Below, piece after piece: positions 25,643 to 51,925 of a DNA stretch of 64,000 nt. The position numbers were made by a program, and so were the translations under genes. A model generated the notes under the pieces. The model was not told the DNA's origin. It saw nothing but the letters and a program-made list of their open reading frames with translations, and did no database searches. The stretch is from positions 8,553 through 72,552 of the forward strand of contig JABHAL010000013.1 in NCBI GenBank assembly GCA_018674305.1. Direction: 5' to 3'. This stretch comes from Candidatus Falkowbacteria bacterium (lineage in GTDB: Bacteria; Patescibacteriota; Patescibacteriia; UBA11705; JABHMO01). Within the stretch, counting starts at the first letter, position 1. Every line of letters starts with the position of its first letter.

Positions 25643-26899
25643 ATGATTAATCCAGAAGTTCAACAACTAAGTGAAAAAGCCCTAAAAGTTAATTTTAACG
25701 AAATTCAACAGGCTCATTTTGATAGATTAATGTCAGAATTAGAAGCAATCTCAGATGGGTTAGGTTTTGCTGAGCTTAAAGCAAAGGCTGAGGCAGGAAG
25801 TAAGGAAGCACTTCAAGTGATGCGCGATTATATCACCAAGAAAGAGCAGATTGTTAAATTTATTGAAACTAAAGAAATATCAAGGGTAAACTGGGAGTTG
25901 GAGTCAGAACCTGTTCTTGAACTACCAGTGGAGAGCATAGAAGCGTGTGATATTTCACCAGACGGCAGTAGATTGATATATATAACAGAAAGTCCAACCT
26001 CTCAAGGTGTTTATGTTAAATATTTGCAGAACAACAAACCGCCAAAGGAGATTTTTGCTAGGACTGCAAATATAGCAAAGATGAAGGATGTAAAATTTGT
26101 TCCAGATGGAGAAAAGGCTTTTATTGTAACTAATAAGCCGGAACTTTACACAGCTTGGTTGCCAACTGACGTTAAAGAAGGTGATTGGGTTCAAGAAAGA
26201 GTTCGTTTAGCACATGCTAAAATGCACGATTGCGCTGTCTCTCCGAATGGGCAAGATATATTGTTTGTTGGTGATGGTTATGTTGAAATAGCTAATTTGG
26301 AAAATATTCATGATCCTAACAGAACGAGATTGGTTTTAAATCTAAAACATGAAGATCCTGATCGCGCAGAAGGTTATATTCAGGCAGGGGTTTGTTTTTC
26401 TCCTGATGGTAAGATTGCTTATGTTCCATTAAACGAGAAAATTTGTAGAATTGATCTTAATAAAAATGATAACCCAATTGGTTTACCAACTTGGGAGAGT
26501 GATGATGTGGGTGAGTCGATTACTCAATTTGATCCGATTTATTCTGTGGCGATCACTTCTGATGGGGAATATTTATTTACAGGCACACAGGACGGCCAGA
26601 TTTCTAAGTGGGAGACGGCTACTGGTAAAGAGATGGCTTTAACAGTAATGGAAGAAAATGATGGTGATATAAATTCGCTAACCACAGCTATTCAAAAGAT
26701 GATTGTTTCTCCGGATAATAAACATTTAATTGTGGGGGATGATTTTGGAAGGTTAACTTTTATTGATATAGAGACAGGTGAACATATTAAAGAAATTCAG
26801 CTACCACAAGCCAGTAGTGTTACAGAATTGAAATTAGTTGGTGAGGATACGATTTATGCGCAAACTGAGACTATGATTCATCGAGTGAAGAGCATATAA
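25643..26899 (+). CDS. family-X paralog (distal copy): conserved N-terminal helical module + beta-propeller-like C-terminus
   Basis: The N-terminal ~75 aa MINPEVQQLSEKALKVNFNEIQQAHFDRLMSELEAISDGLGFAELKAKAEAGSKEALQVMRDYITKKEQIV match the eight paralogs at 42950-51925. The C-terminus has repeated SPDG/SPNG/TSDG..GxxDG..I blades (WD40/PD40-like). Confidence 0.6.
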   Translation: MINPEVQQLSEKALKVNFNEIQQAHFDRLMSELEAISDGLGFAELKAKAEAGSKEALQVMRDYITKKEQIVKFIETKEISRVNWELESEPVLELPVESIEACDISPDGSRLIYITESPTSQGVYVKYLQNNKPPKEIFARTANIAKMKDVKFVPDGEKAFIVTNKPELYTAWLPTDVKEGDWVQERVRLAHAKMHDCAVSPNGQDILFVGDGYVEIANLENIHDPNRTRLVLNLKHEDPDRAEGYIQAGVCFSPDGKIAYVPLNEKICRIDLNKNDNPIGLPTWESDDVGESITQFDPIYSVAITSDGEYLFTGTQDGQISKWETATGKEMALTVMEENDGDINSLTTAIQKMIVSPDNKHLIVGDDFGRLTFIDIETGEHIKEIQLPQASSVTELKLVGEDTIYAQTETMIHRVKSI

Positions 26900-31405: not shown

Positions 31406-31440
31406 AAAAATCATCAATTTACTTTGGTGTTTTTTTATTA

Positions 31441-31510: not shown

Positions 31511-31591
31511 GAAGCACCGGTATTTAGTTGACGGTGCTTTTTGGTTTAAATGATGTTATAATAGAACCGAATAAAAAATAAAAAGTATATT

Positions 31592-37200: not shown

Positions 37201-37465
37201 GGAGAAAGCAGCCTCAGCCGTTGTCGATGGGGTGGAGGTTTATTTACCGTTAGCAGATATTCTTGATCCTGAAAAGGAAAAACAGCGGTTGGTATCTGAG
37301 AAAAGCAATTTGGAAACTTTTGTTGGTAACCTAGAAAAGAAATTAAGCAACAAACAGTTCATTTCTAATGCTCCAAAACAAGTAGTTGAAATTGAAAAAC
37401 AAAAGTTGAAAACAGCACAGGAAAATTTATCTAAAATACAACAACAAATAATTAACTTGAATTAA
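34250..37465 (+). CDS. valS: valyl-tRNA synthetase with inserted histidine-phosphatase (PGM-family) domain
   Basis: HIGH (PPPNVTGVLHLGHA), KMSKS (KFSKSAGN), the WCISRQIWFGHRIPVWY and DTWFSSGLW motifs, and a C-terminal coiled coil. 1071 aa against ~880 typical. The extra ~180 aa at aa ~443-625 carry RHGE...LTKKGQ...LIYTSDFLRTKQTA...DPRLREYGMG...LIVSHGEIL. Confidence 0.95.
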   Translation: MDKTYQSKKFEDKIYKNWIKKDLFNPDKYTGEPYSIMMPPPNVTGVLHLGHALENSLMDSMARYQRLQGKKVLLLPGVDHAAVATQAKVEKILIEQGMENPRQELGRDKLLEKVKKYADESRDTILKQIRRMGTSCDWSRFAYTFDKERNQAVNKVFKKMYDDGLIYRGYKVINWSVKGQSTCSDDELEHKEREAKLYTFKYSKDFPIEIATTRPETKLGDTAVAVNPKDKRYKKYIGQELEVDFCGNKLKLKIISDPEVDPDFGTGALGVTPAHSPVDFEMYEKQKALKQPIGLIPVIGADGKMTKMAGAEFVGLSVEKARDKVVKKLKANGLFIKEEDIMQNVGTSDRFGDVVEAIPMTQWFVDVNKEIPGKKKSLKQLMTQAVNKGHKGKGDQKINIAPQHFEKIYFQWIDNLRDWCISRQIWFGHRIPVWYKEGNSVVGIRHGEAENNAQDYLNGDIDNNHFALTKKGQKQVEQAAEELADQKFDLIYTSDFLRTKQTAKILADKLGVKQVIEDPRLREYGMGEFEGNADGSLSRCRCGHFADWKNANPHGVESWTSVYGRTMAVLEEIKQKHTDKKVLIVSHGEILRYISSYGRNLEPEQTFLLPYPQNAGTIKVDLNEEQIKVSDQPVNDPGWHQDPDTLDTWFSSGLWTFSTLGWPENNKEKNKEKKKIINDLKTFHPTSWMQMGYELLFFWMARMILMSTYVMDEIPFKNVYIHGMLRDEKGQKFSKSAGNGVDPIEVIDKYGADALRWALLIGISPGNDSAFYDEKVESARNLVNKLWNVSRYIIGDIGDKGDRGENKETLADAWILSRFNQLKERVTKLLDEFNFSAAGEELREFTWSEFADWYIEISKIKDQNSELRKKILVKILKELLVMWHPYVPFVTQAIWQQFDPKEDIMITQWPKVDKALINKPKEQKFAIIKEVIIKIRNLRSEYKIDPGKRIKVLLKTDKPFVEENKDVIIVLARLEQLDFVDHKPEKAASAVVDGVEVYLPLADILDPEKEKQRLVSEKSNLETFVGNLEKKLSNKQFISNAPKQVVEIEKQKLKTAQENLSKIQQQIINLN

Positions 37466-37782: not shown

Positions 37783-40179
37783 ATGTCAGAATTAAACCCC
37801 AACCAGATCATTGGTAAAGAACAATTTGTAGAAGGTGTCGATGATGATGACAGTAAGGTTTCAGCGCCAGAAAAGAAAAAAAAGAAAAAAAAGCGTAGTG
37901 AACCGAAATTGCCAGAAGATTTAAAGCCGTTTGAAAAAGAGGCTGCTATTTTTGCTAAATCAAATCGTCGAATTTTGGCAGATCTTGCCGGTGATAATAC
38001 TTTGAGGTTTAAACCAGGGAAAGGTTTTAAGATTAATTTGGTGTCCGGTGAAGTTACGCTTGGTTTAGAGCAATGGAAGTGGGCACATGAACATGGGTTG
38101 GGACATGAGCAAATTCTTTTCAGTAGTGGTCATGAAATTGCTCATTTTTGGGATTTGAGAGAAGACCCAGAGGGAATGCTTGAAAATTTTGATTATATGG
38201 AAAAAAAGGCCAGAGGCTTGGCCCCACAAGTAGAGGCCATTTTGAAAAAAAAGCATGGCGATCTACCAGAATATTTAACTAAACAAAAAAAAGTTGATCC
38301 TGATGACCCGAGCAAAACAATGAGTGGTTTAGAAATATTTTTATATAAACAACTGCATACATTATATAATTGTTTGGATGATATTTATGTTAATAAGCGA
38401 GTTGGTAGGAAAATGGCTCGTTATTTGATTGAAGGAAAAAGACACAGTCCTCAAGTGATGAAAATGTACAGAGATTTTTTGTTTCCAACTGATAGTAAGA
38501 AACGAGGACAGCCACCGGAGGATGAGCTAACCTCATATTATCTTAAAAAAAGTGCTAAGGCTCAACAGTTGGTTTATCTTTTGTTGCGAAAAAGAATGGT
38601 GCCGGATCAAATGGTAATAGTGGATGATGAAATAAAAAAAATTGTCGAAGATGAGGATATGGAAAAGTTGGTTGATTTTATAACGACACCTAGTCCTGAT
38701 GGTATTCCAGAAAAAGATCAACACAGAGCATCTTGGAGATATAAACAAATTAAAGAATATATTGAACCATTCTATATTGAGCTTTTGATGAAAGATATAG
38801 AAGAATTAGAAATCCCTCCAGAAAAAGAAACACAAATGGGTGACGGCGAAGGTGAAGGCGAAGAAGGTGAGGGTGAAGGTGAAGGTGAAGGTGAAGGTGA
38901 AGGTGAAGGTGAAGGTGAAGGTGAAGGCGAAGAAGGTGAAGGCGAAGAAGGTGAGGGTGAAGGTGAACCAAAGGATGGTGAGCCTAAAGATGGCAAACCA
39001 AATCCTTGGTCACAACTCAATCCTAATAAGCCAATGGACAGAAAAACAGTTGCAGATTATTTAAAAGATAAAAAAGGTAAAGATGAAGAAGAGTCAAAAA
39101 AAGTAGCCGAGCGTGAACGCAAGGCTAGAATGACGCCGGCGGAAAGAGCCAAAGAAGCAATTCGCAGAGCAGATAAAGCTTTTGCTGAAAAGCATGATAT
39201 TCCTGAAGAAAAAGTGCATGATTATCGTCAGATCTCGCATGAAATTGCTAAACATAAGGAGGAATTAGCTCAATTATTTGAAAGTATTTGTAAAAATATA
39301 AGTCGTCAGATTGAATTAGCTTGGGAAAAGTATTACCGTTCTGGTAAATTGGATGTTGCTCGATTGACGAAGAAGTACGGTCCATACTTTGTGGATAAAA
39401 AAATGCTCAGTTTTGTACAGTTTGATCAGCTTGAGACTTATCAGCAGAGAGCGTTTATTGAAAAATTAAGTCTAAAACCGGATGAATTTAGAATTAGATT
39501 TATTGTCGATTGTTCAGGATCTATGACGCTTGGTGATAAAACATATAAAGCCAAAGAAGTGTTAGTTTTGTTTTTGGAATCTTTAGCAACATTTGAAGAC
39601 AAAATTGATCGCATGTTCAAAAAATTCAATATGAAACAACCACCACTTCGAGCCAGAACTCAAATTATTACTTTTGGTGATGAAGGTGGGTCTGAGGAGG
39701 TTAAAAAACTCAGAACGGAAAGAAGAATTAATGTGGAACAAGAGAGGGTAGATCGGTTGCGAGGTTTTGCGGGGATTCATTCAGATGGTGGTAATACCTG
39801 TGATGATGAGGCTTGGCAAAAGGTGAAGGGAACTTTTTGGGACGGAGATTCAGAGAAAATTAAAAAGGGAGAGTTGAAAGATATTGCGATCGAAATTACA
39901 GATGGTGGCTCAACTACAGCTGCTGAAACAAGATCTTTGTTGCACCAAATTTCAAATATGGGAATAGTAACACGTGCGATTGGTGTTTTTGATAAAGACG
40001 AAGAAGGGGATGATTATAGGTCCTCTTGGCGAAGTTCTGATTTAGATACTTTTGATGAAGTTTGGGGCAAAGACGGTGAAGTTATTCATGATGTTAGTGA
40101 ATTGGTTGAAGCAGTTTATAAATTACTCAAAGAACAGATTCAGGATATTAACTTCCAAATGGGAGAAGCTGAAGAATAA
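37783..40179 (+). CDS. metallopeptidase-like (HExxH) + von Willebrand factor A domain protein (DUF2201-type), partner of MoxR-like ATPase
   Basis: HEIAH at aa ~117 in an N-terminal domain. MIDAS motif DCSGSM at aa ~576 followed by a vWA-like region. A central (GE)n low-complexity linker. 798 aa. Confidence 0.7.
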   Translation: MSELNPNQIIGKEQFVEGVDDDDSKVSAPEKKKKKKKRSEPKLPEDLKPFEKEAAIFAKSNRRILADLAGDNTLRFKPGKGFKINLVSGEVTLGLEQWKWAHEHGLGHEQILFSSGHEIAHFWDLREDPEGMLENFDYMEKKARGLAPQVEAILKKKHGDLPEYLTKQKKVDPDDPSKTMSGLEIFLYKQLHTLYNCLDDIYVNKRVGRKMARYLIEGKRHSPQVMKMYRDFLFPTDSKKRGQPPEDELTSYYLKKSAKAQQLVYLLLRKRMVPDQMVIVDDEIKKIVEDEDMEKLVDFITTPSPDGIPEKDQHRASWRYKQIKEYIEPFYIELLMKDIEELEIPPEKETQMGDGEGEGEEGEGEGEGEGEGEGEGEGEGEGEEGEGEEGEGEGEPKDGEPKDGKPNPWSQLNPNKPMDRKTVADYLKDKKGKDEEESKKVAERERKARMTPAERAKEAIRRADKAFAEKHDIPEEKVHDYRQISHEIAKHKEELAQLFESICKNISRQIELAWEKYYRSGKLDVARLTKKYGPYFVDKKMLSFVQFDQLETYQQRAFIEKLSLKPDEFRIRFIVDCSGSMTLGDKTYKAKEVLVLFLESLATFEDKIDRMFKKFNMKQPPLRARTQIITFGDEGGSEEVKKLRTERRINVEQERVDRLRGFAGIHSDGGNTCDDEAWQKVKGTFWDGDSEKIKKGELKDIAIEITDGGSTTAAETRSLLHQISNMGIVTRAIGVFDKDEEGDDYRSSWRSSDLDTFDEVWGKDGEVIHDVSELVEAVYKLLKEQIQDINFQMGEAEE
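38842..38966 (+). repeat. hexanucleotide (GGTGAA)n microsatellite encoding (Gly-Glu)n
   Basis: About 20 near-perfect tandem copies of ggtgaa, ggcgaa or gaagaa, in frame within the vWA protein. Confidence 0.85.
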
Positions 40180-40342
40180 ACAAATTAATTATCAATTGAT
40201 CAATGTACAAAGTCCTAAATAAATACAAAAATAATAAGGTTCAAATTTTAAAATTGTTTTGAGTTTATGTGCTTGGATTTGTTTAGAGCTTGATCAACTG
40301 ACTAATCGTTTATTAACTTTATTACATATTAATTAAAATTCT

Positions 40343-42928
40343 ATGGTTCTAAATTTTTTCAAATCAAAGTTCGAGAAGAACTACACTCCAGTAGAGGAAG
40401 TGGATGCTGTTGAGTTACAAGAGTGGAAAGCTAATGATGAGCGTGCAGAAAGATTATTCGAACAATATCAAGAGTATTTTACTTTGCTTTCTGATGTTCG
40501 GCCGGATTTAACTTCAATAGAAGAAACCGTTCAAACTGAGAAAGGTCCTAAGAAGGTTAAACGTCGATTGCAAGTTACGGAAATGCTGGAAACCGATCGT
40601 GAGCATTGGCGGAAGTTTATCAATACAAAAAAAATCAAGCAGGATTTAGCTGAAGAATTGTCAGACTCTACAGACTCAAAAATGGTAATCGAAACGGAGG
40701 TTGAGGCAGTTTTGGATTCAATTGCAGAAATAGTTGAATTAAGAAAGCAAGTTGTGGGGGATGAGGAAATTGGAATTAGTATTCCAAACGAAGTGCAGGA
40801 TGCTTATAATTATAGAGTTCAGGAAGGAATCACAGCCAAAAAGAAAATTAAAGATTATAATAAAAGATTAGAACAATTGTTGGTAGCTTCTCGCGGTTCG
40901 TCAGCACGTAAACGTAGACCTGCTCAAGTCAGAGCAGCTAGAAATGAATATAAGCAATTAAAGGAGGAGTTTAGCGAATATATTGAAAATGATCCAGATG
41001 CTTTTATGGTTATGGCCTTCGATAGAATGTTAAATATGAAGAAATCATTTGATGAGGGTGGTAGAATTGTTGAGACTCGCTATGTGAAAATTTTAATGGA
41101 GCAAGTTTACGAAAAGTTAGAAGGTGGTCGCCCAGTATTTTTGCATGGTGAATTGGGAAGTGGAAAGTCAGAAGTAGCTAAACATTTATCCAGAAAAATT
41201 TTGTCTAGACATTATTTACATCGTTGGGAAACGGGAGATGAGGACTTGAACTTGGCTCCACACCCGAAACCAATAAAACCAGCAGAAATAAACTATGAAG
41301 ATTATGTAAAAGAAGGTATGAGTGAGGAGGAGGTAAGTGAAAATACTCGAGAATTCAACAAAGCCAGGAAAGAGAGACTTGGAAAACTGGAAGAGTGGCG
41401 TAAAAAGCTTAAAGATTGGCACAAAGAACGAAAAGAACAAGCAGAGCCTTATTTAATATCTGGTCATCGAGGATTAGAAGCAGAACAGTTTATCGGAGGA
41501 ATGAAGATTGAGCGTATGAAGAGTATGACACCAGAAGAGAAAACTAAACTGATGATGGAAAAATTGGCGGAGTATAGGTCTGAACACGAGAAAGACGGCG
41601 TAGCAAAGGAAAAATTAGACCAGATGATGGGGTTATATGAGGAAGATCTAAAAAAGTTTTACGATAACCCAGTAGAAGTTTGTGGTTATCTGGGTATGTT
41701 TTATCGCGCGATGCAAGAAGGCCGACCAATTATTATTGATGAGATGAATGCCATTCCTCATCACGTGTTGATTTTATTAAATGATCTTTTGACTAGAGTT
41801 CCTGGTGATAATGTTAAACCTATGGTTGAGGGAGTTTCTGAGTTTACTGTAAAAAAAGGATTTTATGTTATTGCTACAGGTAACTGGGATCCAGAATCAG
41901 CTGATGTTTATGTAGGTCGGCAAAAGATAGATGCTGCCTATTTATCACGTTTTGAATTAGAAAAATACGATTATTTACCTAATGCCGTTGACTTCAGTCT
42001 TCTGGCAGAAACTTCAACGCTGGAACAGGAAGATGAACATAAGCTAAGGCAAGAAAATGAATTATTTCACATGTTGATTATCAGAATGTTAGACAATAAC
42101 GGCTCATTGCAGATCCCAGAGGGAGGAGATGATCAACTTTATAGATTGGCAGTTGTGGCTAGAAATATTCAAAGCGCTTTTTCTGGTTTTGATGTGCCAA
42201 GTGAATATTTTCCAGATGCCACCGGTAATGTTGAACGTGGCCCAAAAGATGTATTAAAGGAAAATGTTTTGTCATTACGACACTTGATCCCAATTATAGA
42301 ACGTTGGAAAAGTGAAGGTTATAGTAAACCAATTGATGTTTATCTTTTTAATTATTACTTGGAAAGATCTAAGGCGAGAGAAGAAGAAATGCTTTATCTT
42401 TATGAAAAACTGCAAACGCAGGGAGATTTTTTCTCTGTTAGTGAAGGCTGGCCTCCAGCAACAGGCGAGATTGATCCGGCAACTGGAGCTAATGATGATG
42501 ATCAAAAGTTTCAACAACAGGCCAAAAATAGAATTTTAAAATTTGATACAGCTAAAATGTTGCATGATGTTGATTATTTGAGTGGACATAAATCGGGTGA
42601 AGCTCTTATTGATGATGATATGCCGGAAGTAGCGACTATGTCGGCGGTAGAGGTAATCAAGATGCTGTTTGGGCGTATCCCGGAGAGAACCGAGATTAGA
42701 TTAAAGAAAGTCAACTTAGGTGAAAATGGTGAGCCTGAAGGTGGAGTAAAAGCAGAATTAGACCCAGTCACAGAAAGAGAAATCCGTAAACTTTCTGAAA
42801 GAAATGAAGAACTTGACGATAGAGTTGAGCATCATGTAGATGAGGGAGGTAAAGATATGCAGGGTGCTCAGGATGCGTTAAAACATGGTCACAGGAAATC
42901 CGAAGAATCTGTAGAAGGCGAACGCTAA
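40343..42928 (+). CDS. MoxR-like AAA+ ATPase (large, with insertions)
   Basis: Walker A HGELGSGKSEVAKHL, Walker B IIIDEMNAIPHHVL and sensor-1-like YVIATGNWDP. 861 aa with charged coiled-coil N- and C-terminal regions. Confidence 0.7.
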   Translation: MVLNFFKSKFEKNYTPVEEVDAVELQEWKANDERAERLFEQYQEYFTLLSDVRPDLTSIEETVQTEKGPKKVKRRLQVTEMLETDREHWRKFINTKKIKQDLAEELSDSTDSKMVIETEVEAVLDSIAEIVELRKQVVGDEEIGISIPNEVQDAYNYRVQEGITAKKKIKDYNKRLEQLLVASRGSSARKRRPAQVRAARNEYKQLKEEFSEYIENDPDAFMVMAFDRMLNMKKSFDEGGRIVETRYVKILMEQVYEKLEGGRPVFLHGELGSGKSEVAKHLSRKILSRHYLHRWETGDEDLNLAPHPKPIKPAEINYEDYVKEGMSEEEVSENTREFNKARKERLGKLEEWRKKLKDWHKERKEQAEPYLISGHRGLEAEQFIGGMKIERMKSMTPEEKTKLMMEKLAEYRSEHEKDGVAKEKLDQMMGLYEEDLKKFYDNPVEVCGYLGMFYRAMQEGRPIIIDEMNAIPHHVLILLNDLLTRVPGDNVKPMVEGVSEFTVKKGFYVIATGNWDPESADVYVGRQKIDAAYLSRFELEKYDYLPNAVDFSLLAETSTLEQEDEHKLRQENELFHMLIIRMLDNNGSLQIPEGGDDQLYRLAVVARNIQSAFSGFDVPSEYFPDATGNVERGPKDVLKENVLSLRHLIPIIERWKSEGYSKPIDVYLFNYYLERSKAREEEMLYLYEKLQTQGDFFSVSEGWPPATGEIDPATGANDDDQKFQQQAKNRILKFDTAKMLHDVDYLSGHKSGEALIDDDMPEVATMSAVEVIKMLFGRIPERTEIRLKKVNLGENGEPEGGVKAELDPVTEREIRKLSERNEELDDRVEHHVDEGGKDMQGAQDALKHGHRKSEESVEGER

Positions 42929-42949
42929 TAATTACGTTAAGTATTAAAT

Positions 42950-43921
42950 ATGATCAATCCAGAACAGCAATTGAAGGAAAGCGCACTTAGGGTGAACTTC
43001 GATGAACGTCAGCAAGATTATTTTGATAGACTAATGTCTGAATTAGAAGTTATTTCTCAGGGCAAGGGTTTTTTAGAGTTGGAAAAAGAGGCTTTAGCCG
43101 GGACAGTAGTAGCTCTTCAGCGTTTACGTGAATATATTGCCAAGAAAGAACAGATTGTGGAGTTTATCGAGAATAAAGAAATACCACCTGTTTTTGTTAA
43201 GACGATTGAATCCATCACTCCGGAAGGAGTAGAGGTTAAAATACAGTTACAAATGGAATTGGAGTCTTGGAAAGGGGCTTATGCTCTAGCTGGCATTGAT
43301 TGGGTTGAGTTTCCTGATAAGTTGGAGGTCACCCAAGAACAAGCTACACGTATGCAGGAATTAATTGCCAAGTATGGTTTTGATAAAATGATGATTATTC
43401 CAGATGAAATAAATGGCAATAACGAATTTAGTGATAATAAAAATTATGAATTAACTAATTTACTTCTTGATGGAGTTGATAAGATCTCTACTACTAATGC
43501 TTATCGTGGTTCCGGCGGTTCAATTAGCCGGGTGCGGGATAATAGGCAGGGATTGAGAATTGTTTTAATGAAAAAAGTTTCTGATTTTAATGAAAGTCAA
43601 TTATATAGAAGCACTTTAGCCGTTAGATGTGATCAAGTTCAAAAGACAGAACCTTTTAAAGAACCGGAGATATCAGGTTTAACGTTGTCTGAGTTTGCTG
43701 TCTGGCAGTGGATGTATTACAAAGCGACTTCTAAATTTTGGGGCTCAGATGGAGGAACTGGAGTTTGGCTACCAGAAACAAAATTTGCTTCAGATAGATA
43801 TATTACGCCAATCGCTTTAATGAAGGAGACTGGTCAAAAAATTGCATTCACAGAGAGAGCACCGGATGAAAGTTACCCAAATGCAGGAACTTTGTTTGGC
43901 GCAGTGTTTCCGATTGAGTAG
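42950..43921 (+). CDS. family-X paralog A: conserved N-terminal module + C-terminal domain type 2
   Basis: N-terminus MINPEQQLKESALRVNFDERQQDYFDRLMSELEVISQGKGFLELEKEA...LQRLREYIAKKEQIVEFIENKE. The C-terminal domain is shared with paralog B (GLRIVLM..FNESQ..SGLTLSEF..GxVFP). Confidence 0.6.
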   Translation: MINPEQQLKESALRVNFDERQQDYFDRLMSELEVISQGKGFLELEKEALAGTVVALQRLREYIAKKEQIVEFIENKEIPPVFVKTIESITPEGVEVKIQLQMELESWKGAYALAGIDWVEFPDKLEVTQEQATRMQELIAKYGFDKMMIIPDEINGNNEFSDNKNYELTNLLLDGVDKISTTNAYRGSGGSISRVRDNRQGLRIVLMKKVSDFNESQLYRSTLAVRCDQVQKTEPFKEPEISGLTLSEFAVWQWMYYKATSKFWGSDGGTGVWLPETKFASDRYITPIALMKETGQKIAFTERAPDESYPNAGTLFGAVFPIE

Positions 43922-44001
43922 ATGTACGAACTTATAAGAAATTACGAACAATTACTTAATTACTACTTACTATTTACCATTTACTATTTACTTATTAACT
44001 T

Positions 44002-45186
44002 ATGTCAGTCAACACAGATCCACAAAAAATCGAACAGTTATTAACTCGCGGAGTGGAAAATGTTTACCCAAATAAAGAATTTTTGGAAGAACTTTTGAAA
44101 TCCGGGAAAAAACTAAAACTATATTTAGGAATTGATCCTACCGGTCCAAGTTTGCATTTGGGGCACGCTATTAGTTTAATGAAACTCAGACAATTTCAGG
44201 AACTTGGTCACACGGTTATTATGTTGATTGGTAGTTTTACTGCCATGATCGGTGATCCAACTGATAAATTAGCCGTTCGTCAGCCATTGACCAGAAAACA
44301 AGTTTTAGCCAATTGCAAGAACTATGAAAAACAAGCGGCCAGTATTTTGGATATGAAAAAAACTGAAGTTAAATACAATAACAAGTGGTTAGATAAATTG
44401 AACTTCAAAGATATCGTTGAAATTGCAGGGAAATTCACAGTTCAGCAAATGCTAGAGCGTGATATGTTTGAGAATCGAATGAAAGAAGGTAAACCGATCG
44501 GATTGCATGAGTTTTTGTATCCTTTAATGCAGGGCTATGATTGTGTGGCCATGAAAGTTGATGGTGAAATTGGTGGCAATGATCAAACCTTTAATATGTT
44601 GGCCGGACGGACGTTAATGAAATCCATGAGTAATAAAGAAAAGTTTGTAGTGACTAATAAATTGTTAGCTGATACTTCTGGTAAGAAAATGGGTAAGTCC
44701 GAGGGTAATATGATTACTTTGGATGATGCTGCTGTAGATAAGTTTGGTAAAGTAATGGCCTGGACAGATGATATGATTGTGAATGGCTTTGAACTTTGCA
44801 CTTTTGAACCAGCAAGTAAGGTTAGCGAAGTTGAAGCGCGATTAAATAAAGGTGAAAATCCACGTGACCTTAAATTAGAATTAGCCAAAGCTATTGTTAG
44901 AATTTATCATGGTGAAGCAGAAGCCGAAAAAGCAGTTGATAACTTTATAAAAACTTTTTCACAAAAGCAAAACCCGGATGACATTGAAGAGTTTGATTTA
45001 AGTGGTAAAACAATTATTGAAGCGTTAGTTGAGGCAAGGGTAGTACAATCAAATTCAGAAGCTAGAAGAAATATTCAACAAGGTGGTGTCAAAATCAACG
45101 ATCAAGTTGTTGAAAAAATAGATACAAAAGTTAAATCTGGTGATGTTATCCAAAAAGGTAAACGCCATTTTATAAAAATCAAATAA
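44002..45186 (+). CDS. tyrS: tyrosyl-tRNA synthetase (with C-terminal S4 domain)
   Basis: HIGH (PTGPSLHLGHA), KMSKS (KMGKSEGN) and a C-terminal S4-like ARRNIQQGGVKIND. Confidence 0.9.
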   Translation: MSVNTDPQKIEQLLTRGVENVYPNKEFLEELLKSGKKLKLYLGIDPTGPSLHLGHAISLMKLRQFQELGHTVIMLIGSFTAMIGDPTDKLAVRQPLTRKQVLANCKNYEKQAASILDMKKTEVKYNNKWLDKLNFKDIVEIAGKFTVQQMLERDMFENRMKEGKPIGLHEFLYPLMQGYDCVAMKVDGEIGGNDQTFNMLAGRTLMKSMSNKEKFVVTNKLLADTSGKKMGKSEGNMITLDDAAVDKFGKVMAWTDDMIVNGFELCTFEPASKVSEVEARLNKGENPRDLKLELAKAIVRIYHGEAEAEKAVDNFIKTFSQKQNPDDIEEFDLSGKTIIEALVEARVVQSNSEARRNIQQGGVKINDQVVEKIDTKVKSGDVIQKGKRHFIKIK

Positions 45187-45195
45187 TCCGCAACT

Positions 45196-45639
45196 ATGAA
45201 AATCCTATTATTTATTGAAAACAACGTATTGAACTCAGATGACCTTAGTCCGGTTACTGGCGTAGCGAGTAAAGTCCAAGGCTGGATTAGTAATGGTGCA
45301 GAAGTTGAATTTGTCACAGGTATTCATAAATTTTTGGATTTAAAAAAAGTTGACGAAGCAATTCAAAAGTTAGGAGTTTCCCATCCCAAGATACACGCTA
45401 GAGCAGAAGGCGAGAAATATATAAATATTGTTCGTGAGGTAAAACCAAATATTTTATTAGAAAATGAAACTAACTCTGGCGAAGAAAAAAAAGTTGCTGA
45501 TAGATTAAAACCAGAAGACAAAGTCAATTGTATCTTTTTAACAGGGGAAAAGGGAGTTGATAGTTTACCCGTTGATCTAGATGAGCTAAGGGACCTTTCT
45601 GAAGAAGACGGGGAAGTAGTTCGTGAGGATGCTTATTAA
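45196..45639 (+). CDS. hypothetical protein
   Basis: 147-aa ORF with no recognisable motif. It starts 10 nt after tyrS. Confidence 0.35.
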   Translation: MKILLFIENNVLNSDDLSPVTGVASKVQGWISNGAEVEFVTGIHKFLDLKKVDEAIQKLGVSHPKIHARAEGEKYINIVREVKPNILLENETNSGEEKKVADRLKPEDKVNCIFLTGEKGVDSLPVDLDELRDLSEEDGEVVREDAY

Positions 45640-45709
45640 TTGTAGTACAGATAATACAAATTAAAGTGCTACTAGACAATCATTTATTATTTATTTTAGT
45701 TATAATTTT

Positions 45710-46747
45710 ATGTTTACTCCAGAAGCAAGTCAATTAAATGAAAGTTCACTTAGAGCTAATTTTAATGAAGCACAGACAGACCATTTTAACCGTTTGATGG
45801 ATGAGTTGGAGCATATATCACAAGGGTATGGCTTTCAAGAGATCAAAGCTATTGCTGAAGCTGGTGACCCACAAGCTTTGAAAGTTTTACGACAATATGT
45901 TTCAAAAAAAGAACAGGTTGTATGTTTTATTGAAAGAAAAATAATCTTGGTTCAAGATATTCGGGCAACTACACCTGAAGGAGTGGAGGTAGAATTTCAT
46001 TTACAAGAACAGTTGCGTAAATGGCAATCCTTTTTTATGGAAAAAGGAATTGATTGGGTGGATTGGCCACAGGAAATTAAAGTTAGTCAGGAAACACAAG
46101 AGCAGATGCAGAAACTTATTGAACGAGCTGGATTTAACCGTTTGGCCGTCATCCCTGAAGGTGTGGTTGGAGATCCAGACTTTGAGGAGAGTATTGATGG
46201 GAAAGGACGAAAAATTAATAAGCTAGTTACTCCAGCAGAACATTATAGTGAACTGTTTAGAAAAATGACAGTTGGCTCTGATTATAACCCACCTGATTTT
46301 TTCAAAAGCGATTTACTAGAGGGTGGAATTGATGGGACTTTAGATACACGCAAGGATTTGAGATTAGTTTTATTTACAGATGTCCCTGGACACGACGGAT
46401 GTAAGCATACTAAAAGTTTTAATAATGAATCGTGGGAGGCCTTACAAAGAAGAAAGCCCATGTATCCTAATATTGATGGTTTAACTTTATCAGAGTATTT
46501 TATATTAGAGCGTGATCATTTTGATCGTACTGGTCAGCATTTGTTTACTGATTCTAGTAATATTTGTTCTGCTAGCGTGCGACCAGCAACTGATCGAGTA
46601 CCAACTGTTCGTTGGGGGACTCAGAACAATCGCATTCTTTTTAAATCTAGACCAAAGACATACGAACCAGACGCAAGTAGAAGATCTTCAAGTAGGCCTT
46701 CAATAATTACTAAAACCGCTGGGGTTTTTCCAGCAGAAGCTTTCTAA
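45710..46747 (+). CDS. family-X paralog B: N-terminal module + C-terminal domain type 2
   Basis: N-terminus MFTPEASQLNESSLRANFNEAQTDHFNRLMDELEHISQGYGFQEIKAIAEAGDPQALKVLRQYVSKKEQVV. The C-terminus is related to paralog A. Confidence 0.6.
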   Translation: MFTPEASQLNESSLRANFNEAQTDHFNRLMDELEHISQGYGFQEIKAIAEAGDPQALKVLRQYVSKKEQVVCFIERKIILVQDIRATTPEGVEVEFHLQEQLRKWQSFFMEKGIDWVDWPQEIKVSQETQEQMQKLIERAGFNRLAVIPEGVVGDPDFEESIDGKGRKINKLVTPAEHYSELFRKMTVGSDYNPPDFFKSDLLEGGIDGTLDTRKDLRLVLFTDVPGHDGCKHTKSFNNESWEALQRRKPMYPNIDGLTLSEYFILERDHFDRTGQHLFTDSSNICSASVRPATDRVPTVRWGTQNNRILFKSRPKTYEPDASRRSSSRPSIITKTAGVFPAEAF

Positions 46748-46750
46748 AAT

Positions 46751-47527
46751 ATGCAGCCAGAGTTAGGCCATTTGAGTGAACAAGGCTTACGCGCTGATTT
46801 CAACAAGAAGCAGCGCGTTTATTTTGATAAATTAATGTCTGAATTAGAAGAAATCTCAGGTGGTTTAGGTTTTTCTGAACTTGAAGCGGAAGCCCGGTCT
46901 GTGTTGAGTTCATCGGCGACTTCAGTCGGCAGCTCAAGTGAAGCCATTCAAAAACTAAGAGATTATATCGCCAAGAAAGAGCAGATTGTGGGGTTTATTG
47001 AGCAAAAAGAATTACCTGAGACATATGAATTACGCGATGAAGAGCTTGAGGTTGGTGATGAGGTTTATTTGATTGAGCCAACAACTGGTTTCGTTCGAAA
47101 AGGGAAAATTTCTAATTTCTTTGAGAAGGATGGTGCTGATTGGGCTAGGGTTATTACTGGCGATGATGGCAAACAACTGAGCTTTTGTAAAATAGAAAAT
47201 TTAGCTAAAAATAAACCTAAAAAACTTGATGCTGGAGAGCTTGGAGAACTTGTGGTGTTGGATTTGAGTAAGTATCAAGGTTTTGGTGTAGGGGATATCT
47301 ATCATAATTTTAGAAGCAAAAATAGGAAAATTGAGGGATTTTGTTCGCCCGACAATGCAGTAGAATCTAATGGCTTTAAACCTAGTGGCGTGGCTGTTGT
47401 TTTCAGTTATGGAGAGGGTATTTTCCATAGCCATAAAGAGAAAATGTTTGGTTCCGAGTCAATCGGTAGTTTTAAAGAAGCCATTGAAAATATGATGTAT
47501 AAAAAAATAGAAGACCCGAATTTATGA
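46751..47527 (+). CDS. family-X paralog C: N-terminal module (with Ser-rich insertion) + SH3/KOW-like C-terminus
   Basis: FDKLMSELEEISGGLGFSELEAEA...KLRDYIAKKEQIVGFIEQKELPE, then VGDEVYLIEP..KGKI and LAKNKPKK..LDLSKYQGFGVGDIY, as in paralogs E-H. 3-nt gap from B and 4-nt overlap with D. Confidence 0.6.
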   Translation: MQPELGHLSEQGLRADFNKKQRVYFDKLMSELEEISGGLGFSELEAEARSVLSSSATSVGSSSEAIQKLRDYIAKKEQIVGFIEQKELPETYELRDEELEVGDEVYLIEPTTGFVRKGKISNFFEKDGADWARVITGDDGKQLSFCKIENLAKNKPKKLDAGELGELVVLDLSKYQGFGVGDIYHNFRSKNRKIEGFCSPDNAVESNGFKPSGVAVVFSYGEGIFHSHKEKMFGSESIGSFKEAIENMMYKKIEDPNL

Positions 47528-48813
47528 TTAATCCAGAAATTCAACAATTAGCAGAAAAAAGCCTTAAGGTTAATTTCACAGAAGTTCAACAACAACGTTT
47601 TGATAAATTAATGTCTGAATTAGAAGAAATCTCAGGTGGTTTGGGTTTTTCTGAACTCAAAGCGAAAACGTTGAGTCTACCACCAAATTCAGTTGCTGGA
47701 AAAAGAGCGCTTCAGCGTCTTCGCGATTATATTACCAAAAAAGAAAAGATTGTTGTGTTCATTGAGACAAGAGACATGAGTCCAAATTGGCAGGATTACA
47801 AAAAGACACGTGAATTATCATCAATTTATGGTGATTCTGAAAGACCTTTTTCAGCTGACTGGTTGGATGAGGATAATATGTTGGTTCGTTATACTATTTT
47901 TGGTGGTGATGAGGATACTATGGCCATGGTTTATCCGGAGTCTGGGGCTATGTTTGATGGTCTTCGAGAGGGACTTTTCAAAGGAGGGATTTCTTTCTAT
48001 AAAATGATTGATAATCAAAGCGCCTATTGCATTGATTCTAAAAATTTTTTATATAAACTTGATTGGACAGGTAAGGCAATGCTTGATGCAGAAATAGTAT
48101 CTTTAGGTAGAATAAATAGAGATAATCTTGAGGCATCTGAAATTGCTATAGTCGGGAAAGACATTTTGTTAATTTCTATGACTGATGATAAGCTGATTAT
48201 GTGGGATGTTAGTGCAAAACAAAAGATTTTCACTTTTCAAGGAAAACATGAGGACAGTATTATGAGTACACAAAGATTATCACCAGCTAGTGTTGTCACT
48301 TTGGATCTCAGTGGTGGAATTGCAGCTTGGAATTTATTAGGAAATAAAGAAAATGTTTGGTATGAAACTATTGCCCCTGCTACAAATCACTTTATCGATA
48401 TGCAATGCCAGGATGATAATTTTGTTAATAGCGTGGTTACAAAAGATAATATTATTGTACATGCCAACGTAACAAGCAAGTTCAAAACGGAATCAGATGT
48501 GCCAGATATTACACGTTCCGAGCTTATATTTCTAAATAAAAAGGGAAAAGAGCAATATAGGGTTGAGTTGCCAAAGGACTTGCAAATATTCGATAAAATT
48601 TATGAGATTCAGCTGACTGATGACAATAAATTACTGTTGGGAATGGAATCAGGCGAAGTTTTGGTTTATGATATTAAAACGAATAAGATTGTCAGTACAA
48701 TTGGCGATCCAGATGAAGAAAAAAAAGGCGTTGAGAGAATGCAGGTTTTGCCAAATAACCAATTGATGGTAACGTATGGAGATGCTACGATTGCGTTTTT
48801 CGATGAAAAGTAG
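47524..48813 (+). CDS. family-X paralog D: N-terminal module + beta-propeller-like C-terminus
   Basis: N-terminus MINPEIQQLAEKSLKVNFTEVQQQRFDKLMSELEEISGGLGFSELKAK. The C-terminus has WD-like blades (DDKLIMWDVSAKQKIFTFQGKHEDSI, GGIAAWNL, GEVLVYDIKTNKIVSTIG). Confidence 0.6.
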   Translation: MINPEIQQLAEKSLKVNFTEVQQQRFDKLMSELEEISGGLGFSELKAKTLSLPPNSVAGKRALQRLRDYITKKEKIVVFIETRDMSPNWQDYKKTRELSSIYGDSERPFSADWLDEDNMLVRYTIFGGDEDTMAMVYPESGAMFDGLREGLFKGGISFYKMIDNQSAYCIDSKNFLYKLDWTGKAMLDAEIVSLGRINRDNLEASEIAIVGKDILLISMTDDKLIMWDVSAKQKIFTFQGKHEDSIMSTQRLSPASVVTLDLSGGIAAWNLLGNKENVWYETIAPATNHFIDMQCQDDNFVNSVVTKDNIIVHANVTSKFKTESDVPDITRSELIFLNKKGKEQYRVELPKDLQIFDKIYEIQLTDDNKLLLGMESGEVLVYDIKTNKIVSTIGDPDEEKKGVERMQVLPNNQLMVTYGDATIAFFDEK

Positions 48814-48952
48814 GAGCAGTAATTGGTAATCAGTCCCGATGAATCAGCAAAGCTGATTATCGGGATCCCGCCTTACGTCGGGATAATTAGTAACTAGTAA
48901 ATAGTAGTGAGTAACTAAATAATTTTTTAAACTAGATCAAAATTCAAAGAAC

Positions 48953-49648
48953 ATGTTAACTCCTGAACACAATTTAACTGAACGCTCACTCCAAGCTAAC
49001 TTCACCGAAGTTCAGCAAGCTCATTTCGATAAATTAATGTCTGAATTAGAAGTGATTTCAGATGGTTTGGGTTTTGCTGAGCTTAAAGCAAAGGCTGAAG
49101 AGGGAGATAAAGAAGCCCTTCAGGTAATGAGGGATTATATTACTAAGAAAGAACAGATTGTTGAGTTTATTGAGAAGAAGGAAGTGCCTGAGAATGAGTG
49201 GCGTGAAGAGGAACTTAAAGTTGGAGATGAGGTCTTTGTTTTGAATACTGCGCATTTTGGAGAAAAAGTGAAAATTTTAGATATTAACGATTTAGGTAAA
49301 GTTAAAAGGTATTATGTTAAGGTCAAGGAAGGTGCCAATACAAATTTACGATTTTTTCAGGATTGGTATTTAGCCAAAAATAAACCAGAAGAATTTGATG
49401 CTGATCGAGCGGGTAAAATTTATTTACTTGATTTAAAAAAATATAACGGGCTTACTGTCGGCGATTTTTTTTCTAAAGGTGTAGAAAATAGAGAAATTTT
49501 AGGTTTCAAAATGCCAGAACATCCCCATCACCGAGTCGGATTAACGATTGTTGTTAAAAAAGACGGCGAGGCAACATTTTTAATGTCATACAAAAGATTC
49601 ATAGAACTAAATGAGGAGCAAAATTATAAAAAAGTCGAAAAGTCTTAA
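48953..49648 (+). CDS. family-X paralog E (231 aa): N-terminal module + SH3/KOW-like units
   Basis: N-terminus MLTPEHNLTERSLQANFTEVQQAHFDKLMSELEVISDGLGFAELKAKAEEGDKEALQVMRDYITKKEQIVEFIEKKEVPENEW. The C-terminus is colinear with F, G and H. Confidence 0.65.
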   Translation: MLTPEHNLTERSLQANFTEVQQAHFDKLMSELEVISDGLGFAELKAKAEEGDKEALQVMRDYITKKEQIVEFIEKKEVPENEWREEELKVGDEVFVLNTAHFGEKVKILDINDLGKVKRYYVKVKEGANTNLRFFQDWYLAKNKPEEFDADRAGKIYLLDLKKYNGLTVGDFFSKGVENREILGFKMPEHPHHRVGLTIVVKKDGEATFLMSYKRFIELNEEQNYKKVEKS

Positions 49649-49689
49649 ACACGTAACACATAACACGTATCCTGTAACAATCATAAAAA

Positions 49690-50385
49690 ATGTTAAATCC
49701 CGAACAACAATTAATAGAAAGATCTCTTCACGCTAACTTCACTGAAGTTCAGCAACAACATTTTGATAAACTAATGTCTGAGCTGGAACAGATTTCAGGT
49801 GGTTTAGGTTTTTCTGAATTTAAAGCTAAAGCTGAAACTGGTGACAAAGAAGCATTACAAGTAATGCGTGATTATATCGCCAAGAAAGAGCAGGTTGTTG
49901 AGTTTATTGAGAAGAAGGAAGTTCCTGAGAATGAATGGCGAGAGGAGGAGCTTAAAGTTGGAGACGAGGTTTTTATATTGTATGCCGCACATTTTGGAGA
50001 AAAAGTAAAAATTATAGATATTGACGATTTAGGTAAAGTTAAAAAGTATCATGTTCAGGTCAGTGTAGTTGACGATACAAATTCTCGGTTTTTGAAAGAT
50101 AGTCAATTAGCTAAAAATAAACCAGAAAAATATTATGCTGACAGATTGAGTGAAATTGATTTACTGGACTTGAAAAAATATATAGATCTTTGTGTGGACG
50201 ATGTTTATTCTGATGGTCAGGAGATAAAAGAAATTATTGGGTTTATGATGCCAATCGCTGCAAATCATGAGGATGGTTTAACAATAGTGTATAAAGCAAC
50301 TAATGGTCAGACATATGCAACATCATACAGACGTTTTAAACAGATTAATCGTGGACTCGATTATAAAAAAGTAGAAAAGTCTTAA
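49690..50385 (+). CDS. family-X paralog F (231 aa)
   Basis: Full-length homolog of E (N-terminal module plus VGDEVFIL..GEKVKII..LAKNKPEKY..LLDLKKY). Confidence 0.65.
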   Translation: MLNPEQQLIERSLHANFTEVQQQHFDKLMSELEQISGGLGFSEFKAKAETGDKEALQVMRDYIAKKEQVVEFIEKKEVPENEWREEELKVGDEVFILYAAHFGEKVKIIDIDDLGKVKKYHVQVSVVDDTNSRFLKDSQLAKNKPEKYYADRLSEIDLLDLKKYIDLCVDDVYSDGQEIKEIIGFMMPIAANHEDGLTIVYKATNGQTYATSYRRFKQINRGLDYKKVEKS

Positions 50386-50447
50386 GCGTATAGCGTGAAT
50401 CGTATAGCGCGTAACACATATCCCGTACCCCGTAACAAAATTAAAAT

Positions 50448-51158
50448 ATGATCAATCCCGAGCAACAATTAACAGAAAAATCTCTCCATGCTAACTTTAC
50501 CGAAGTTCAGCAACAACATTTTGATAAACTAATGTCTGAGTTGGAGGTGATCTCAGGTGGATTAGGTTTTGCTGAACTTAAAGAGAAGGCTGACGCGGGT
50601 AATAAAGAAGCATTGCAAGTAATGCGTGATTATATCGCCAAGAAAGAGCAAATTGTTGAGTTTATTGAAAAGAAGGAGATGCCTGAGAATGAATGGCGAG
50701 ATGAGGAATTCAAGTTTGGTGATGAAGTCTATATAGTGGGAGGGGGTTATTCTGGTAGAAAAGGAACAGTTGAGAATAATGATAGTTCTGGTAACGTAAT
50801 TCGAGTACTGGTTTTTAGCAAAGATGAGAATGGCGATGCCGAAATAATTTATTTTAATCCTGAAGATGTAGCCAAAAATAAACCGGAAAAAATCCAATCT
50901 GACCGACTTGGTGAAATTGAGTTACTTGATTTGAAAAAATATGAAGATTATGCTGTTGGTGATATTTTTGTGCGACATAATAGGACTAAAACAAAAACAA
51001 GAGAGATTTTAGGTTTTAGTATGCCTGATAGCTTTACTCACGAAGAAGGCCTGAAAATTGTTTTTAAATATGGTGATGGTGATGTGTATACTGCACGTCG
51101 CTTCAGATTCGAGAATGAAATTATTGCTTTAGTTTACAAAAAAGTAGAAAAGCCTTAA
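50448..51158 (+). CDS. family-X paralog G (236 aa)
   Basis: Full-length homolog of E and F. Its first ~65 nt are identical to H, and it has a near-identical 62-nt upstream spacer. Confidence 0.65.
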   Translation: MINPEQQLTEKSLHANFTEVQQQHFDKLMSELEVISGGLGFAELKEKADAGNKEALQVMRDYIAKKEQIVEFIEKKEMPENEWRDEEFKFGDEVYIVGGGYSGRKGTVENNDSSGNVIRVLVFSKDENGDAEIIYFNPEDVAKNKPEKIQSDRLGEIELLDLKKYEDYAVGDIFVRHNRTKTKTREILGFSMPDSFTHEEGLKIVFKYGDGDVYTARRFRFENEIIALVYKKVEKP

Positions 51159-51220
51159 GCGTATAGCGTGAATCGTATAGCGCGTAACACATATCCCGTA
51201 TCCCGGAACAAAATTAAAAT

Positions 51221-51925
51221 ATGATCAATCCCGAGCAACAATTAACAGAAAAATCTCTCCATGCTAACTTTACCGAAGTTCAACAACGATATTTTGATAA
51301 ATTAATGTCTGAATTGGAAGTGATCTCGGATGGTTTGGGTTTTACTGAACTTAAAGCGACTGCTGAAGCGGGTAATAAAGAGGCTCTTCAAGTAATGAGG
51401 GATTATATCTCCAAGAAAGAACAGATTGTTGAGTTTATTGAGAAAAAAGAATTGCCAGAAGTAAATGAATTGAGAGACGAGGAATTAAAAGTTGGTGATG
51501 AGGTTTTTATATTAGAGAATTTTTCATTTGGAGCAACGGGCAAAATATTAAGTATTCCTAGAAGTTCGGATAGTAAAGCTTTTATGGTTGATGGAATTAA
51601 GGATAGTAATAATCCTTCAATGAAAGAATATGGATTTGAAGGACGATTGTTGGCCAAAAATAAGTCAGAAAAATATAATGCTGATAGACTTGGTGAAATA
51701 GATTTGCTAGACTTAAAAAAGTATAACGATATAACAGTTGGTGATATTTATCGCTCCGAGGATGGTAAAGGAGAAATAGAAGTTGTTGGCTTAAGTATGC
51801 CAATAAATGCTAAGATTGAAGATGGTCTATTAATTGTGTATAAAATAGGTAATGGGCAAACGTATGCCAAGTTAAATCGCTGGTTTCGGCGAGATCTTAA
51901 AGCTCGTAATTATAGAAAAGCATAG
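51221..51925 (+). CDS. family-X paralog H (234 aa)
   Basis: Full-length homolog of E, F and G. Confidence 0.65.
   Translation: MINPEQQLTEKSLHANFTEVQQRYFDKLMSELEVISDGLGFTELKATAEAGNKEALQVMRDYISKKEQIVEFIEKKELPEVNELRDEELKVGDEVFILENFSFGATGKILSIPRSSDSKAFMVDGIKDSNNPSMKEYGFEGRLLAKNKSEKYNADRLGEIDLLDLKKYNDITVGDIYRSEDGKGEIEVVGLSMPINAKIEDGLLIVYKIGNGQTYAKLNRWFRRDLKARNYRKA

Follow-up and report, generated by a model that had tools for sequence, protein, structure and literature searches.

Introduction

The targets of diversity-generating retroelements (DGRs) in Candidate Phyla Radiation (CPR) bacteria are some of nature's most abundant hypermutated genes, and to our knowledge they have no known function and no known partners. 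Wu et al. (2018, PMC5758913) matched the "UVR4" targets of CPR to the AAA domain of midasin, and a second paper (PMC10907252, citing Paul 2017) describes CPR DGR targets that either match an AAA ATPase of midasin type or are joined to one as a fusion. vWA-MoxR ternary systems of VMAP, iSTAND, FtsH and beta-propeller types were defined in a study that left out CPR, and the VMAP type is recognised by a VMAP-C third component, a WxhapG-type motif at the N-terminus of the MoxR protein and effectors at the C-terminus of the vWA protein (Kaur et al. 2020, PMC7159879). Both kinds of system, the MoxR-vWA ternary one and the midasin-type ATPase linked to a DGR in CPR, are known already. Here we analyse a 64,000-nucleotide stretch of the genome of a Candidatus Falkowbacteria bacterium (contig JABHAL010000013.1, positions 8,553 to 72,552; hereafter the window), in which a gene for an HExxH-vWA protein and a gene for an AAA_5 ATPase are followed by eight paralogous genes with a common N-terminal module, a ninth copy lying upstream. 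We give about an even chance to the reading that this locus encodes a midasin-like hub, comprising the AAA ATPase, a metal ion-dependent adhesion site (MIDAS) and an HExxH domain, that is served by a germline-encoded repertoire of receptors. An earlier reading of the same DNA (the original prediction) had taken the shared module for an adaptor that recruits binding or effector proteins to the pair; the DGR link and the midasin-like affinity described below were both absent from it.

An HExxH-vWA protein and a midasin-like ATPase form a conserved CPR cassette

The locus is chromosomal and belongs to a CPR/Patescibacteria organism. Its gene order recurs in independent assemblies (a 128-kb contig in ENA, GCA_018703365.1 and Logan contigs), which excludes an assembly artefact.

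The first gene of the pair (37783..40179, + strand) encodes a protein of 798 aa with an N-terminal HExxH domain (residues 40-346, nt 37900-38820) and a C-terminal vWA domain (about residues 562-795), beyond which there is nothing further. The motifs named in the original prediction were all recovered at their positions in the translations: in this protein HEIAH (residues 117-121, nt 38131-38145) and the MIDAS motif DCSGSM (residues 576-581, nt 39508-39525), and in the ATPase the three motifs given below. A second MIDAS motif, TDG, lies at residues 706-708 (nt 39898-39906), and T672 completes the signature. Across 26 homologues, down to 19% identity, E118, D576, S578, G579, S580, T672 and T706-D707-G708 are invariant, and H117 and H121 are nearly so. 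The Pfam VWA profile matched the window protein slightly below its cutoff (8e-5) and matched family members significantly, down to 5.5e-14. The AlphaFold2 model of the protein (pLDDT 78) was matched by Foldseek to vWA/MIDAS structures at E 7e-7 to 1e-5, and the top fold matches include human MDN1-MIDAS/NLE1-UBL (UBL, ubiquitin-like domain), Rea1-MIDAS and NorD. On conservation and model together, a vWA domain with a complete MIDAS site is present. Scans of Pfam, NCBIfam and PADLOC assigned the HExxH domain, a candidate zincin metallopeptidase, to no family. The original prediction had also named DUF2201-type pairs as a parallel, and the window protein is not of that type: neither DUF2201_N nor DUF2201 (PF13203 and PF09967) matched the window protein or 10 of its homologues at E<=0.1-1. 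An NCBI entry from a Candidatus Falkowbacteria metagenome-assembled genome (MAG) is 96% identical to the window protein.

The two domains are joined by a disordered Gly-Glu repeat linker (nt 38839-38997) followed by a helical region. The linker is encoded by perfect and imperfect GGTGAA repeats, is acidic and is modelled at pLDDT<50. Its length varies among near-identical relatives, whose proteins measure 798, 782 and 770 aa, and this variation points to contingency-like behaviour of the repeat. More distant vWA homologues from Clostridium have lost the HExxH motif.

The second gene (40343..42928, +) encodes an ATPase of 861 aa whose N-terminal region is long and helical and whose Walker A (GELGSGKS, residues 269-276, nt 41147-41170) is separated by a large insertion from Walker B (IIIDEMN, residues 463-469, nt 41729-41749). 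Sensor 1 (ATGN) follows at residues 511-514 (nt 41873-41884) and an LSRF arginine at nt 41942-41953. The Pfam AAA_5 profile matched at 2.4e-9 (37.8 bits, cutoff 22), and G269/G272/G274/K275, D466/E467, T512/N514 and R536 are invariant in 19 homologues. By profile and catalytic residues the protein is an AAA+ ATPase of the AAA_5, MoxR/midasin clade, as the original prediction had it. The sole significant match of the AAA family profile among PDB sequences is midasin (E 5.6e-5). We collected 45 AAA homologues, nearly all from CPR; the window ATPase is 100% identical to a protein of a Candidatus Falkowbacteria MAG at NCBI. A phage origin was considered and rejected, the AAA family not being found in IMG/VR contigs.

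To compare loci we scanned one genome per species, using open reading frame (ORF) calls and hidden Markov models (HMMs) made for this analysis; L-numbers (L001 and so on) denote the loci or contigs of relatives compared with the window. The scan returned 60 AAA loci, and in most of those with room for it an HExxH-vWA gene is adjacent or one gene away. The hosts are Falkow-, Uhr-, Moran-, Magasanik-, Sacchari-, Gracili-, Parcu- and Pacebacteria within CPR, and Urinicoccus, Peptostreptococcus russellii and Atopobiaceae outside it. The aminoacyl-tRNA synthetase (aaRS) synteny of the pair is conserved in four lineages. The HExxH-vWA and AAA_5 pair is conserved as a cassette across CPR and shows affinities to midasin. 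An arrangement of AAA gene, third component and vWA gene also occurs in a few non-CPR Gram-positives (L061, L062, L066, L071, L063, L064).

A third component of the cassette is linked to diversity-generating retroelements

Clustering of the proteins that flank the pair linked the C-terminal domain of two of the window's paralogs (A and B) by homology to a gene, X, located between or just beside the vWA and AAA genes in L036, L041, L043, L044, L046, L050 and L053. Paralog A (42950..43921, +) starts 21 nt past the AAA stop codon and consists of the shared N-terminal module (nt 42950-43180) and an X-type C-terminal domain. Paralog B (45710..46747, +; module at nt 45710-45943) has the same composition and has orthologues at the same position in L005 and L009. 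Both are homologous to X over nearly their full length. In blastp, A matched the X proteins of L041 and L044 at 1e-7 to 1e-9 over 250-280 aa. An X HMM built from DGR-lineage proteins, with no sequence from the window clade, detected just two ORFs of the window, B (2.8e-15) and A (3.6e-8). It matched B in two collinear segments, the N-terminal one beginning at about residue 30, in the second half of the module. These homology searches show paralogs A and B to be orthologues of X. With its adjacent HExxH-vWA and AAA_5 genes and an X-family gene (A), the window carries the whole cassette, and on sequence comparison A is its retained third component.

At the position of paralog A in L009, between the AAA gene and TyrRS (12761-13122), there is a 362-nt AT-rich non-coding stretch packed with short TAAACG/TTAAA-like repeats, which may be a scar or a recombination site.

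In X-bearing loci a reverse transcriptase (RT) gene (RVT_1, 1e-22) stands beside the vWA gene. Together with an intergenic template repeat (TR), the 3' ends of the X genes make up sets of repeats, in pairs or triplets, in which nearly all mismatches of the variable repeat (VR) to its TR fall at TR adenines: 23/25 and 22/26 in L050, 21/23 in L037, 17/18 in L054 and 10/10 in L047. An RT together with TR/VR repeats was found in L037, L041, L043, L047, L050 and L054. The VR lies in an X gene beside the pair in L041, L043, L047 and L050; in L037 and L054 an extended AAA gene carries it at the 3' end, the variable domain being fused to the ATPase. By their repeat pattern, these sets beside homologous pairs are classic DGRs. 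Taken together, the DGR link and the midasin affinity place the system next to the known DGR and AAA-ATPase targets of CPR.

Several details of these loci are of note in themselves. DGRs adjoin homologous pairs in L038 as well as in the six loci above (L037, L041, L043, L047, L050 and L054), with one or two VRs. One TR is common to two X targets in L041 and L050, and L043 has the same repeat pattern, its first copy being truncated where the contig begins. The reading frame of the L050 RT is broken into two parts.

The window itself is not a DGR locus, as it has no RT, TR or VR: tblastn detected no RT in it, and no VR-like repeat was found at the 3' ends of A and B. The C-terminus of DGR-lineage X proteins carries a CLec-like "..G(C/A)R.." motif that is absent from A and B. 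Loci with an RT have at most two X copies and no larger array, and loci with arrays of at least three paralogs have no RT. Compared with the CPR DGR and midasin-type AAA loci of the literature (PMC5758913, PMC10907252), the window has the same AAA family and the same cassette. It differs in having no RT, TR or VR and no CLec-like motif in A and B, and its diversity resides instead in the family of paralogs that share the N-terminal module.

A shared N-terminal module is joined to diverse C-terminal domains

Nine window genes, all on the + strand, share an N-terminal module of ~78 aa with 29 of 80 columns invariant, far beyond chance; they were found at the coordinates given in the original prediction. 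That prediction had eight of them following the ATPase directly. Their coordinates are right, and a TyrRS gene and a gene for a 147-aa protein separate A from B-H. Paralog C (46751..47527) has a Ser-rich insert in the module and a small beta-rich, possibly SH3/KOW-like, C-terminus. Paralog D (47524..48813), which shares its first 4 nt with the end of C, joins the module to a WD40-like beta-propeller. Paralogs E (48953-49648), F (49690-50385), G (50448-51158) and H (51221-51925) have C-termini of SH3/KOW-like type. Paralog I (25643..26899), 17 kb upstream, carries a WD40 beta-propeller (Pfam WD40, 3.8e-9) and directly follows map at the end of a ribosomal-protein/secY/adk cluster. Of the C-terminal types proposed originally, the WD40 propeller (D, I) and the domain shared by A and B stand, and the SH3/KOW-like label of C and E-H depends on sub-threshold KOW matches (3.6e-4).

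In E-H the module has dS of 0.55-1.3 and dN/dS of 0.09-0.15, and the C-terminal parts have dN/dS of 0.26-0.53. The high dS with low dN/dS indicates that the module is kept by strong purifying selection and does not reflect recent duplication or gene conversion. The acidic residues E5, E10, E31, E33, E43, E67 and E74 are invariant. The module reads as helical and not obviously ubiquitin-like. The E-H type is present as four tandem copies in the window and as one copy in the close relative L005, which keeps of paralog C a remnant of 56 aa; these differences show rapid turnover. Neither the module nor the A/B domain was assigned to a family by the Pfam, NCBIfam and PADLOC scans.

No component has a hydrophobic segment resembling a signal peptide or a transmembrane (TM) segment (maximum 19-residue Kyte-Doolittle mean, 1.24), so that the components appear cytoplasmic, consistent with the intracellular system envisaged originally. 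An array of polymorphic toxins or secreted effectors was considered and rejected on the same ground, together with the lack of matches to toxin or immunity families in the Pfam, NCBIfam and PADLOC scans. These data also bear on a reading in which the paralogs are exported proteins with which an episymbiont interacts with its host or its surface, in which the module signals export or sorting by a non-classical route, and in which the AAA/vWA pair acts in the cytoplasm as chaperone or loading factor. Binding-type C-termini such as leucine-rich repeats (LRRs), propellers and SH3-like domains, expanded on a large scale in a reduced genome, are typical of interaction repertoires, the module always begins at residue 1, and in other organisms DGRs often target proteins of the surface (Roux preprint, 10.1101/2020.04.01.020958). 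Against export stand the missing signal and TM segments and the report that CPR DGR targets have no TM domains (same preprint), and the cassette has no conserved membrane or secretion component across the loci. We regard export as quite unlikely.

The same features allow a comparison with the vWA-MoxR ternary systems. The likeness lies in the MoxR-clade ATPase, the vWA protein and a third component that is variable and diversified, in some cases by DGRs; linkage to DGRs occurs in VMAP systems too (PMC7159879, PMC10907252), and in the beta-propeller type the third component has repeats, as in the window. The original prediction had placed the locus among these conflict systems, with the module as an effector-associated domain (EAD) that recruits effectors. 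An EAD is expected to have a copy fused to a core component. Neither hmmsearch --max nor hhalign detected a copy of the module on the vWA or AAA protein (probability 0.2%, E>0.09), and the EAD reading is rejected on that account. Nor did any Pfam family for VMAP, EADs, Trypco or effectors match any paralog or third component; the WxhapG motif was looked for by eye only. The paralogs have no enzymatic effector domain in Pfam scans, their C-termini being binding modules and not enzymes, so the proposed effector modules were not found. The window lacks VMAP-C and iSTAND, its vWA protein has an N-terminal HExxH domain where VMAP-type proteins have C-terminal effectors, its components sit in a housekeeping neighbourhood in a CPR organism, and PADLOC returned nothing. 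A ternary conflict system with an effector-recruiting EAD is accordingly the reading to which we give least weight, as highly improbable.

Paralog arrays flank the pair in other lineages

Arrays or pairs of variable proteins that share an N-terminus flank the vWA-AAA pair in at least eight CPR lineages. With the orthology of A and B to the operon-embedded X, this upholds the proposed tie between the pair and variable, non-enzymatic binding proteins. The RT-less loci with arrays include L011/L013 with 13 copies (seven upstream and six downstream), L017 with 12, L022 with six (4+2), L040 with four, and L010 and L042 with three each. Two copies are arranged around the pair in L027/28, L049 and L070, and Urinicoccus has a single copy between the AAA and vWA genes. 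In the arrays of other lineages a lineage-specific N-terminal helical region is followed by LRRs, a propeller or other repeats.

Comparison of the N-modules by hhalign revealed homology in two pairs only, the window with L010 (98%) and L022 with L027 (95%); all other pairs reached <=21%, against <=3% for reversed controls. As the N-modules are mostly not unified, the theme shared between lineages is architectural, and fast divergence is possibly the reason. A single ancient N-module for all lineages was considered and is not demonstrated by these alignments.

The architecture resembles, as an analogy, that of F-box-type receptor families, in which a short N-terminal helical handle is combined with WD40, LRR or other binding domains in large, dispersed, fast-evolving families that serve one hub. 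The two have no relationship in sequence and no demonstrated one in structure, and the hub in the window is an AAA/MIDAS pair and not a cullin ligase.

The module family extends beyond the pair

A word-indexed search of 5.8 billion proteins yielded 12 matches to the module, mostly fragments at contig ends, and HMMER, run in full over 1.84 billion cluster representatives, yielded 56, of which 41 had E<=1e-30; in the HMMER matches the module always occupies residues 1-80. The 54 distinct full-length members fall into 26 groups of C-terminal similarity, that is, at least 26 types. Besides the A/B type they include propellers (WD40 and others), small beta domains and repeats of helical or WG-like kind; LRRs occur in more distant members. 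On these scans the module is confined to a narrow Falkowbacteria clade. Further arrays were seen in relatives (L001 and L076-L082), some of whose genes are truncated (56 aa) or split, and the array in the dcw cluster of L001 lies between ftsI and a Mur ligase.

Several of these observations weigh against a receptor repertoire that serves the pair. Thirty module genes in seven arrays, on two JGI contigs of a relative (449 and 201 kb), have no vWA or AAA gene within 10 kb, and most module genes do not adjoin the pair. The close relative with a single E-H-type gene has a second array of eight module genes in its dcw cluster (L001 8463-18277), and paralog I is located behind map, away from the pair. 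Conversely, about 15 loci have no recognisable third component, and L019 holds the pair in the same synteny (ValRS-vWA-AAA-TyrRS-146aa-ArgRS) without any paralog, which marks the arrays as insertions into an older locus in which TyrRS and the 147-aa gene are ancestral. The absence of a module copy on the vWA and AAA proteins and the limitation of hhalign homology to two pairs of N-modules count on the same side.

The main rival explanation draws on these points. It holds that the module family is an independent, lineage-specific expansion, for instance of oligomerising cytoplasmic binding proteins, that only A and B belong to the cassette, and that the other copies came to lie beside the pair by chance or because the site tolerates insertions. 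The arrays far from any vWA or AAA gene, those in the dcw cluster and behind map, the L019 pair without an array and the interleaving of aaRS housekeeping genes would all be expected from it. What it does not account for is the orthology of A and B to an operon-embedded X and the finding that X-type members occur only beside the pair, none of the 30 distant genes being X-type; in addition, unrelated paralog arrays abut the pair in at least six further lineages, which is hard to attribute to chance. The linkage of module and pair that the original prediction expected in other genomes holds, then, for the X-type members and not for the 30 distant genes. Similarly, a pair without an array, which it had named as contrary evidence, exists in L019, and at least eight lineages have flanking arrays or pairs. 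We consider an independent expansion unlikely.

Similarity to midasin and a proposed mechanism

In the midasin clients Ytm1 and Rsa4/NLE1, a UBL domain inserts an acidic residue into the MIDAS site. Rea1/Midasin (MDN1) resembles the window system in combining an AAA_5 motor with a MIDAS, in having clients composed of a small N-terminal domain and a WD40 propeller, and in the similarity of sequence and fold to the window AAA profile and vWA model. It differs in that the motor and the MIDAS of the window are on separate proteins, with one AAA module per chain compared with six, in that the window handle looks helical by sequence and not like a UBL, and in that the presumed clients are many and fast-evolving. 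MoxR-vWA chaperone pairs (NorQ/NorD, CbbQ/CbbO, CoxD/CoxE, RavA/ViaA) are likewise two-gene units of ATPase and vWA protein, and the NorD vWA domain is among the fold matches. These pairs serve one client enzyme, whereas the window has no such gene and has a receptor family and an HExxH domain.

The midasin affinity raises the alternative that the cassette is a housekeeping chaperone for assembly or remodelling, comparable to Rea1 when it removes the WD40 factors Ytm1 and Rsa4, with the module as a MIDAS-interacting domain. Midasin as the sole PDB match of the AAA profile, MDN1/Rea1 MIDAS-UBL among the top fold matches, the two paralogs that consist of module and WD40 and the aaRS synteny kept in four lineages are in line with this. 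Hypermutation of X by DGRs, copy-number change in close relatives and at least 26 C-terminal types would be unexpected of such a chaperone, most bacteria lack the cassette, and the module reads as helical and not obviously ubiquitin-like. We think a housekeeping role improbable.

We therefore return to the reading of a hub with a receptor repertoire. Its core would be a three-part CPR cassette of a midasin-like AAA_5 ATPase, an HExxH and MIDAS-vWA partner and a variable receptor, X, whose helical N-terminal region is followed by a C-terminal domain that would bind the ligand. A DGR hypermutates this C-terminal end of X in several CPR lineages, and the AAA protein's own end in two loci. In the Falkowbacteria lineage A and B are X orthologues minus the CLec-like variable end, and the helical N-terminus of X would have become the conserved ~78-aa module on many binding domains, creating a germline-encoded repertoire. 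The module may act as the handle by which each receptor docks onto the hub, most simply through an acidic residue at the MIDAS, as the UBL of midasin clients does, and the C-termini may be alternative ligand-binding heads. The AAA ring would spend ATP on pulling or remodelling the receptor-ligand complex, which would possibly be delivered to the HExxH site; candidate ligands are invading phage or host-derived molecules. Paralog arrays and DGRs would then be alternative ways of diversifying the same receptor position. The wider claim, that this is a split-midasin recognition machine of CPR with receptors diversified either by DGR hypermutation or by a germline repertoire of ~30 or more genes sharing one handle, is possible and we advance it tentatively.

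Neighbouring genes

The window has a GC content of ~35% and tightly packed, co-directional housekeeping genes, including a ribosomal-protein cluster, secY, adk, map, ValRS, TyrRS and ArgRS; ValRS and ArgRS flank the whole array block. The TyrRS gene (44002-45186, +) and the gene for the 147-aa protein (45196-45639, +) lie between paralogs A and B and are not part of the system. The latter product is acidic, has no family match and always follows TyrRS in the window, L005, L009, L019 and L083; it may be a conserved TyrRS-linked gene of the clade. A scan for promoters and terminators over 37-52.5 kb gave counts equal to chance expectation, and Rfam and tRNA scans had no match in the region of the pair and arrays.

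The ValRS gene (34250-37465, 1071 aa) has a His_Phos_1 (phosphoglycerate-mutase-like) domain inserted mid-synthetase, an unusual aaRS fusion that Pfam also detects in the relatives L005, L009 and L083. Further upstream, two adjacent paralogs (28086-28835 and 28889-29734) encode hydrophobic N-termini, Asp/Pro/Thr-rich repeats (DPIDT...) and a Cys-rich C-terminal domain, their domains being 86% identical in DNA over 300 nt; the products are likely secreted or surface proteins. The region 30001-32000 reaches a local GC of 42% and covers an ORF of 391 aa (29786-30961, - strand) that is overlapped by several ORFs in other frames and is kept in L083. Genes for tRNA-Ile(UAU) and tRNA-Val at 31204-31405 adjoin this ORF.

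Implications

The locus and its relatives define conserved partners of the CPR DGR and AAA targets, namely an HExxH-vWA(MIDAS) protein and the X receptor family, and some lineages appear to have replaced hypermutation by a large family of paralogs that share a handle. In the accessible literature on CPR DGRs and vWA-MoxR systems we found no description of the HExxH-vWA partner, of the X family or of ~30 paralogs with a shared handle taking the place of hypermutation, and the one paper found to join Patescibacteria, MoxR and vWA concerns host defences. The interaction of the handle with the MIDAS or AAA protein can be tested without a working DGR. The module family may make up several percent of the genes; a family of ~30 genes is a sizeable share of a genome that is probably <1 Mb, which suggests that its function matters to the lifestyle of the symbiont. 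If the proposed reading is true, the system would be a prokaryotic parallel to hypermutated versus multigene-family receptors, in the cytoplasm of an ultra-small symbiont.

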